The notes under the pieces are model-generated. The model made no database searches and had not been told where the DNA came from. It saw only the letters and a list, made by a program, of their open reading frames with translations. The translations under genes and the position numbers were made by a program. Positions 27,298-28,320 of a DNA stretch of 64,000 nucleotides are shown here, in pieces; the first letter of the stretch is position 1, and each line of letters begins with the position of its first letter. Source of the DNA: Escherichia coli (GTDB lineage Bacteria > Pseudomonadota > Gammaproteobacteria > Enterobacterales > Enterobacteriaceae); the NCBI RefSeq assembly GCF_041886205.1, contig NZ_CP169029.1. The stretch is one strand, 5' to 3'.

Positions 27298-27827
27298 ACA
27301 CAAAAATCAGATACGGCCTGTCGGCTGCCGTTCTGGCGCTGATTGGTGCTGGCGCATCTGCTCCTCAGATACTTGACCAGTTTCTGGACGAAAAAGAAGG
27401 TAACCACACAATGGCATACCGCGATGGTTCTGGCATATGGACCATCTGTCGGGGTGCCACAGTGGTGGATGGAAAAAACGTTTTTCCCAATATGAAACTG
27501 TCGAAGGAAAAATGCGACCAGGTCAACGCCATTGAGCGTGATAAGGCGCTGGCATGGGTGGAGCGCAATATAAAAGTTCCACTGACCGAGCCACAGAAAG
27601 CCGGTATCGCGTCATTCTGTCCCTATAACATTGGCCCTGGTAAGTGTTTTCCGTCGACGTTTTATAAGCGGCTTAATGCCGGTGATCGTAAAGGCGCATG
27701 CGAGGCGATTCGCTGGTGGATAAAGGACGGTGGACGTGATTGCCGCATTCGTTCAAATAATTGTTACGGTCAGGTTATTCGTCGTGACCAGGAGAGTGCA
27801 TTAACCTGCTGGGGGATAGAACAGTGA
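27294..27827 (+). CDS. rrrQ: phage endolysin (lysozyme) with N-terminal signal-anchor
   Basis: 177 aa; hydrophobic N-terminus; lysozyme-like core; overlaps neighbours in a lysis cassette. Confidence 0.8.
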   Translation: MNTKIRYGLSAAVLALIGAGASAPQILDQFLDEKEGNHTMAYRDGSGIWTICRGATVVDGKNVFPNMKLSKEKCDQVNAIERDKALAWVERNIKVPLTEPQKAGIASFCPYNIGPGKCFPSTFYKRLNAGDRKGACEAIRWWIKDGGRDCRIRSNNCYGQVIRRDQESALTCWGIEQ

Positions 27828-28320
27828 ATCAGATATTCACGGTGATTTTGCTCGTGTTGTCAGGATTTGTCGTAGGTAATGTCTGGAGCGACAGAGGATG
27901 GCAAAAAAATGGGCGGAGCGTGATGCTGCCGAATTATCTCAAGAGGTAAATGTCCAATTTGCTGCTCGAATAATTGAACAGGGGCGAAGTATATCCCGTG
28001 ATGAGGCTGTTAAAGATGCACAACAGAAATCTGCTGAAATTTCTGCCAGGGCTGCTTATCTGTCTGATAGTGTTAACCAGTTGCGTGCCGAAGCAAAAAA
28101 ATATGCCATACGCCTTGACGCAGCGAAGCATACCGCAGATCTTGCCGCTGCCGTCAGAGGCAAAACAACCAAAACCGCCGAAGGAATGCTCACCAACATG
28201 CTCGGAGATATTGCAGCAGAAGCTCAGCTTTATGCTGAAATTGCTGACGAACGCTACATCGCAGGAGTGACTTGTCAACAGATCTATGAATCTTTAAGAG
28301 ATAAAAAGCATCAAATGTAG
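27824..28320 (+). pseudogene. Rz-like i-spanin gene with frameshift in an A7 run
   Basis: GTG 27824 encodes a TM N-terminus and stops at 27947-27949; the coiled-coil body is in another frame from 27898; the frames meet at A7 (27903-27909); one extra A would give a 165-aa protein. Confidence 0.55.
28016..28270 (+). CDS. Rz1-like o-spanin lipoprotein embedded in the +1 frame of Rz
   Basis: Signal peptide with lipobox LTSC then Pro-rich mature region; start codon uncertain (28001 or 28016). Confidence 0.5.

Follow-up and report, generated by a model that had tools for sequence, protein, structure and literature searches.

Introduction

In phage lambda, the spanin Rz is held in the inner membrane, as a type II protein, by an N-terminal transmembrane domain that acts as its anchor (PMC5295617; PMC6139136). 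Nonsense mutations throughout the periplasmic part of lambda Rz abolish lysis, and loss of either spanin subunit leaves spherical cells that are bounded by the outer membrane (PMC5295617; PMC6139136). Escherichia coli K-12 carries a spanin-type gene pair in its cryptic prophage Qin, in which rzpQ (b1553, 498 bp, 165 aa) contains the embedded gene rzoQ (b4689, 84 aa). A literature search on rzpQ and rzoQ found nothing functional and returned almost only chance string matches. The stretch of E. coli chromosome analysed here (64,000 nucleotides in its full length; hereafter, the window) has the same locus, with a disrupted rzpQ and an intact rzoQ. In this study, we describe the lesion in rzpQ, its occurrence in other E. 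coli assemblies, and its predicted effect on the lysis cassette.

Materials and methods

The A run in rzpQ was located by sequence read-out and a regular-expression search, and the gene was aligned to intact alleles. A repaired protein was obtained by adding one A to the run and was searched against Pfam and PHROG. Protein products were also sought in a protein collection by exact look-up. Complete RefSeq genomes were counted by exact match to the flank of the run in its A8 or A7 form, on two allele backgrounds (window-type and K-12-type).

Results

The window carries a defective Qin-like prophage

The window runs from ynfH/dmsD at its left to tam and an IS200/IS605-type element at its right, and is 99.95-99.98% identical to wlxctx60 over 57 kb. 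A Qin-like lambdoid prophage, flanked by rspB and a truncated ydfJ, lies at about 12.5-37 kb. Genes for terminase, portal, head, or tail shaft were not found in the window prophage; the segment at 30475-36643 holds gnsB and a small hypothetical gene, followed by a truncated tail-tip gene, lom (30908-31507), stf (31566-34043), tfa, and pin. A prophage without terminase, head, and tail genes makes no virions, whatever the state of Rz. Hence, the proposal in a preliminary description of this DNA that the spanin break decides whether the lysis cassette is functional holds in part: the break bears on outer-membrane rupture by the remnant cassette, and it does not decide the release of phage.

A 1.3-kb IS3-family element (15936-17242) interrupts the exonuclease gene of the prophage. 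Its orfA (15990-16316) and orfB (16313-17203) overlap in the way that is typical of transposases made by a programmed -1 frameshift, and the element is missing at the same site in E308 and wlxctx60. The prophage of E308 keeps other fragments (DUF1441, a truncated terminase, portal, and tape measure); the relatives thus carry different deletion variants of the same prophage. At about 50012-50017, the window has G6, compared with G5 in E308 and wlxctx60. By position mapping, this run is intergenic between a relE/parE-family toxin gene and marR, and the difference may be either genuine or a homopolymer miscall. At the right end (about 62890-64000), a gene for an IS200/IS605-family TnpB, an RNA-guided endonuclease, adjoins tam, as mapped to wlxctx60. 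E308 is without the TnpB gene, and its match ends at 62845.

The features of the late region are listed in Table 1. The holin gene is annotated essD/essQ in wlxctx60, ECCWS199, and E308, and ydfR has the same position in K-12 Qin and phage Tritos. Judged from its N-terminal sequence and the phage 21 paradigm (PMC6139136), RrrQ is probably a SAR-type endolysin. The GTG start of rzpQ overlaps the rrrQ stop codon. The three inserted genes between Q and the holin gene are non-phage-like. At 26644-26675, which is about 90 bp before the holin start, there is a terminator-like hairpin (ACGCCAG...CTGGCGT, followed by a T-run). It might end transcription of the AraC-type gene, or it might be a terminator of the late operon that is read through under Q. 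In L006, a locus that carries the same rzpQ lesion, a K-12-type upstream region is joined within the 5' end of the holin gene, which indicates mosaic recombination.

Table 1. Features of the lysis cassette and its surroundings in the window
Feature	Position	Strand	Evidence or remark
Antiterminator Q gene, prophage late operon	23231-23623	+	ORF list; annotation of the 99.9%-identical stretch in wlxctx60 and E308
Lipocalin, inserted gene	23779-24303	-	
YbgA-family (YbgA/DUF1722), inserted gene	24496-25455		
AraC-type regulator, inserted gene	25853-26575		
Class II (phage 21 S-type) holin essD/essQ, 71 aa, intact	26766-26981	+	Pfam PF04971, E = 2.3e-34
ydfR (DUF1327), 103 aa, between holin and endolysin	26986-27297	+	Pfam PF07041, E = 3.3e-51
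rrrQ lysozyme, 177 aa, intact, hydrophobic N-terminus	27294-27827	+	Pfam PF00959, E = 6.2e-24; annotated rrrQ
rzpQ, Rz-like i-spanin gene with 1-bp deletion	27824-28320	+	497 bp instead of 498; aligned to intact alleles
N-terminal fragment ORF: membrane anchor, 13 out-of-frame residues, TAA stop	27824-27949	+	ORF translation
140-aa ORF: Rz periplasmic body without anchor or signal	27898-28320	+	Named 'DUF2514 family protein' by gene callers
A7 run, frameshift site; A8 in intact genes, encoding Q-K-K right after the anchor	27903-27909	strandless	Alignments
rzoQ, Rz1-like o-spanin lipoprotein gene, 84 aa, intact, embedded in the +1 frame	28016-28270	+	Lipobox; PHROG 11621
Second A7 run, common to rzpQ and rzoQ, normal length in the window	28095-28101	strandless	A8 in wlxctx60
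cspI	28684-28896		

rzpQ is broken at a run of seven A

The window reads GGC AAAAAAA TGG at 27900-27912. The ORF that begins at the rzpQ GTG has 41 codons, namely 28 native residues ending in WQK and then 13 unrelated residues, with the stop codon at 27947-27949. It is hydrophobic at residues 4-22 (19-residue Kyte-Doolittle mean of 2.08). No transmembrane segment was found in the 140-aa ORF, for which the top 19-residue Kyte-Doolittle mean was 0.61. Insertion of one A into the window gene fused both frames into a 165-aa protein that has the N-terminal transmembrane anchor and the periplasmic domain of an i-spanin in one polypeptide. As the gene stands, anchor and body are in different frames; the locus is therefore a disrupted member of the embedded Rz/Rz1-like two-component spanins.

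The repaired protein matched Pfam DUF2514 (E = 9.7e-38; 130 bits, cut-off 26; profile positions 4-160 of 161) and PHROG 312 'Rz-like spanin' (E = 7e-57), and so belongs to a recognised i-spanin family. It is identical in sequence to P0001, a protein found on at least 1000 contigs, and to what rzpQ encodes in strain ECCWS199. In a three-way alignment, the window gene was identical to the intact ECCWS199 gene apart from the change of A8 to A7. As the window gene does not differ from this intact allele in any other base, the broken frame is not a product of chance. The preliminary description had reported an Rz-like gene broken at A7 that one A would repair to 165 aa, and the alignment bears this out.

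That description had also proposed a comparison with the Rz genes of related prophages. K-12 rzpQ, with 96% nucleotide identity to the window allele, has A8 and encodes an intact 165-aa protein; the genes of phages Tritos and 2H10 likewise have A8 and 165 aa, and they keep the embedded Rz1. The distant homologues of Fraca and N15 (58-60%) have an in-frame A7 and an in-frame A6, respectively. The Pfam DUF2514 model takes in the N-terminal anchor. In all 40 phage homologues, the match took in at least 87% of the protein and began no later than residue 15; an N-terminal anchor is encoded by each of the four phage genes that were translated. A 100% match to the whole 497-bp gene was absent from 5426 complete E. 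coli genomes; the best matches were 99.8% identical and all were 498 bp. The 41-aa N-terminal product was absent from the protein collection by exact look-up, which carries no information, since ORFs of this size are seldom called.

The embedded rzoQ is intact

The gene rzoQ lies wholly within rzpQ, in the +1 frame relative to the Rz body and next to the endolysin gene, and begins 107 bases 3' of the rzpQ lesion. Its product has an LTSC lipobox at residues 20-23 and a mature part of 62 aa with 9 Pro and 3 Cys; residue +2 is Val. RzoQ thus shows the lipobox Cys, the Pro-rich composition, and the lack of an inner-membrane retention residue at +2 that are features of o-spanins. It matched PHROG 11621 'Rz-like spanin' (E = 1.7e-8), and H2R is its only residue change relative to K-12 RzoQ. 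The earlier observation that the +1-frame Rz1 escapes the break was therefore correct.

In wlxctx60 (L001), the complete genome closest to the window, the first run is A7 and the second is A8 (2730-2737), and rzoQ is frameshifted too. PGAP splits the gene of wlxctx60 into three pseudo-fragments.

A7 is a rare allele with signs of inheritance

Among complete RefSeq genomes, the window-type allele had the exact A8 flank in 535 and the exact A7 flank in one (wlxctx60); the corresponding numbers for the K-12-type allele were 1050 and 6. A8 is the norm among complete genomes. The 140-aa ORF, which is created only by the A7 form, is on record on 131 contigs and in 227 collection blocks. Most of these blocks (171 of 227) come from contigs under 20 kb and only four from contigs above 1 Mb, which suggests that the carriers are mostly short-read draft assemblies. 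Among the carriers are GCA_036252075.1, GCA_000937415.1, GCA_020421435.1, GCA_045080645.1, and run DRR294271.

A7 was present in all seven loci that were fetched. Five of the seven have no indel relative to the window over 4.4-6.4 kb, and one, L003 (GCA_036252075.1), is 100% identical to the window over 6.4 kb. The SNPs of the carriers are nested: A7 occurs in all of them, 29117T in a subset, and 27260A only in the window and L003. This is the pattern of an inherited mutation with later substitutions, and independent errors would not give it. The A at 27260 (C in all other loci) changes Ala92 of ydfR to Asp and marks L003 as the nearest relative of the window by sequence. When 8.3 kb of prophage are compared with E308, no indel other than the A at the rzpQ run is seen; relative to wlxctx60, the window has only two indels in 57 kb.

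The preliminary description had left two options, real decay or a homopolymer error. Its first option is favoured by the presence of A7 in many independent assemblies, the nested SNPs, and the small number of other indels. We conclude that A7 in the window is very probably a real, lineage-borne allele and that rzpQ is a true pseudogene. The locus has the marks of a homopolymer-slippage pseudogene: it differs from intact orthologues in run length only, and the lesion is inherited and recurs in independent assemblies, the platforms of which are judged from contig sizes.

Under the other option, rzpQ of the strain is in truth intact, with A8, and the run was under-called by one during sequencing or assembly. 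Long homopolymers are a classic error site, and some long-read platforms systematically call a homopolymer of eight too short, which could explain some of the A7 calls in complete genomes, where A8 is overwhelmingly the state. The difference between wlxctx60 and the window at the second A run and the several further 1-bp indels of the A7 carrier L004 also fit such an error. However, the same allele is found in assemblies that mostly have short contigs, the identity with L003 is complete, the SNP pattern indicates inheritance, and no further indel against close relatives falls in the prophage late region of the window. An error in the window is therefore unlikely.

L004 combines A7 with an E308-type SNP (26964A), and its A7 may itself be an error, given that it has four other 1-bp indels. 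Independent origins of A7 within the window's allele are thus not claimed. Recurrence of A7 may be claimed across alleles alone, with the platforms of the six K-12-type cases as a caveat. In both K-12-type cases that were inspected (UTAK-1 and ETEC1702), PGAP labels the 497-bp form 'rzpQ, frameshifted'. Other, independent truncations of rzpQ include P0004, on 81 contigs, and P0012.

Discussion

Predicted origin and effect of the lesion

The allele probably arose by slipped-strand loss of one A from the A8 run right after the anchor codons, which would have shifted the frame, and A7 appears to have been inherited in an E. coli lineage since then. Translation from the GTG at 27824 would yield a 41-residue membrane peptide that ends at 27949 without a periplasmic domain. 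The periplasmic body could be made, if at all, only from the internal ATG at 27898; as it has neither anchor nor export signal, it would remain in the cytoplasm. The RzoQ lipoprotein would still be encoded but would have no inner-membrane partner, so that the periplasm-spanning complex could not form. After induction of the cassette, the inner membrane would be perforated and the wall degraded, and lysis would then be expected to stall at spherical cells bounded by the outer membrane. By analogy with lambda Rz, which is of a sequence family other than DUF2514, we infer that the A7 allele is a spanin null. Because the prophage was already defective, selection on rzpQ was presumably relaxed, and the further disruptions of the gene (P0004, P0012, and the second-run A8 of wlxctx60) are consistent with this.

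Can the A7 allele still give a functional spanin?

Slippage in E. coli is known to occur at A-rich heptamers and at A runs. Some full-length RzpQ might thus still be made from the A7 allele, either by -1 ribosomal slippage on A-AAA-AAU or by an RNA polymerase that adds an A. Either slip recreates the exact wild-type 165-aa protein; a -1 shift after the Lys codon at 27905-27907, for example, reads AAA and then TGG and restores ...WQKKWAE.... Nevertheless, we regard such recoding as very unlikely. The split frames are not conserved, as about 1585 exact-flank complete genomes have an in-frame A8 compared with 7 that have A7. The gene is in frame in the viable phages inspected, Tritos and 2H10, and in the distant homologues the run itself is not kept. 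No stimulatory structure was found 3' of the slippery site: the 80 nt at 27911-27990 fold at -17.6 kcal/mol, compared with a shuffle mean of -18.75 (z = 0.36). Furthermore, ribosomes slip poorly with AAU in the A site, and efficient transcriptional slippage would call for a run longer than A7. The locus thus shows neither the conserved split frames nor the downstream stimulatory element of a programmed frameshift or transcriptional-slippage site, and no support for programmed recoding was found. Any rescue would be a low-level by-product and not a designed mechanism.

The A8 run behind the anchor codons of rzpQ could also act as a contingency switch. By changing back and forth between A8 and A7, or through a low level of transcriptional or ribosomal slippage on A7 that again gives the exact wild-type protein, it would tune how fully a domesticated cassette ruptures the outer membrane. 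If so, the release of cell contents or vesicles could be affected, and the occurrence of A7 on two allele backgrounds would reflect switching and not decay or error. We consider this idea slightly less probable again than the recoding of A7.

A genuine short Rz, with the 140 aa from ATG 27898 as a functional variant, would fit the GGAG 9 nt upstream of this ATG and the reporting of the ORF by gene callers, but it has almost no chance of being correct: its product has no hydrophobic segment or signal peptide with which to reach the periplasm or be anchored in the inner membrane, the N-terminal anchor is part of the family model and of those phage homologues that were examined, and every 140-aa locus examined is simply the A7 allele. 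We rejected it, and since none of the 40 phage homologues is a short form of this kind, which the preliminary description had named as grounds to abandon its claim, the disruption of rzpQ stands.

Meaning of the pseudogene

An inherited A7 in rzpQ is an ordinary pseudogene of an already recognised kind, and the finding is correct. The proper label of the locus is a frameshifted rzpQ pseudogene with an intact rzoQ, instead of a 140-aa 'DUF2514 family protein'; the artefactual 140-aa entry is already in public protein databases. Beyond annotation the lesion has little importance, and the biology of this virion-less element is unchanged. It is a small, clean example of homopolymer decay in the lysis genes of a cryptic prophage, and it illustrates how a lesion that sits upstream of an embedded gene can destroy the host gene and leave the embedded one in place.

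Comparison with known systems

The window pair resembles lambda Rz/Rz1 in architecture. Both consist of an inner-membrane type II protein and an outer-membrane lipoprotein that is encoded inside its gene in the +1 frame, and both stand last in the lysis cassette (PMC6139136, PMC5295617). Lysis by lambda halts before its final step when either subunit is lost (PMC6139136, PMC5295617). The two systems differ in that RzpQ belongs to DUF2514/PHROG 312 and not to the sequence family of lambda Rz, and in that the i-spanin of the window is broken; no match of the repaired RzpQ to lambda Rz was seen in the Pfam search.

The complete phage genomes of Tritos, 2H10, mEp460, and PhiR42_1 encode full-length RzpQ homologues that are 92-95% identical, and in Tritos the neighbouring genes are as in the window (S, ydfR, endolysin, cspI, and gnsB). 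The spanin genes of these phages are intact, whereas the window holds a prophage remnant with a frameshifted spanin gene.

The frameshifted rzpQ genes in RefSeq (UTAK-1, ETEC1702, and wlxctx60) show the same loss of one A from A8 at the same site. Of these, wlxctx60 shares the window's own allele and flanks at 99.95% identity and differs by the second-run A8 that breaks rzoQ. UTAK-1 and ETEC1702 differ from the window in having the K-12-type allele, and their lesions are thus independent events or errors.

K-12 Qin has the same gene order as the window, namely ess, ydfR, rrrQ, rzpQ/rzoQ, cspI, ynfN, and gnsB, and shares the GTG start that overlaps the rrrQ stop codon. Upstream of this block, between Q and the holin gene, K-12 Qin has cspF, cspB, and ynfU, where the window has the lipocalin, YbgA-family, and AraC-type genes.
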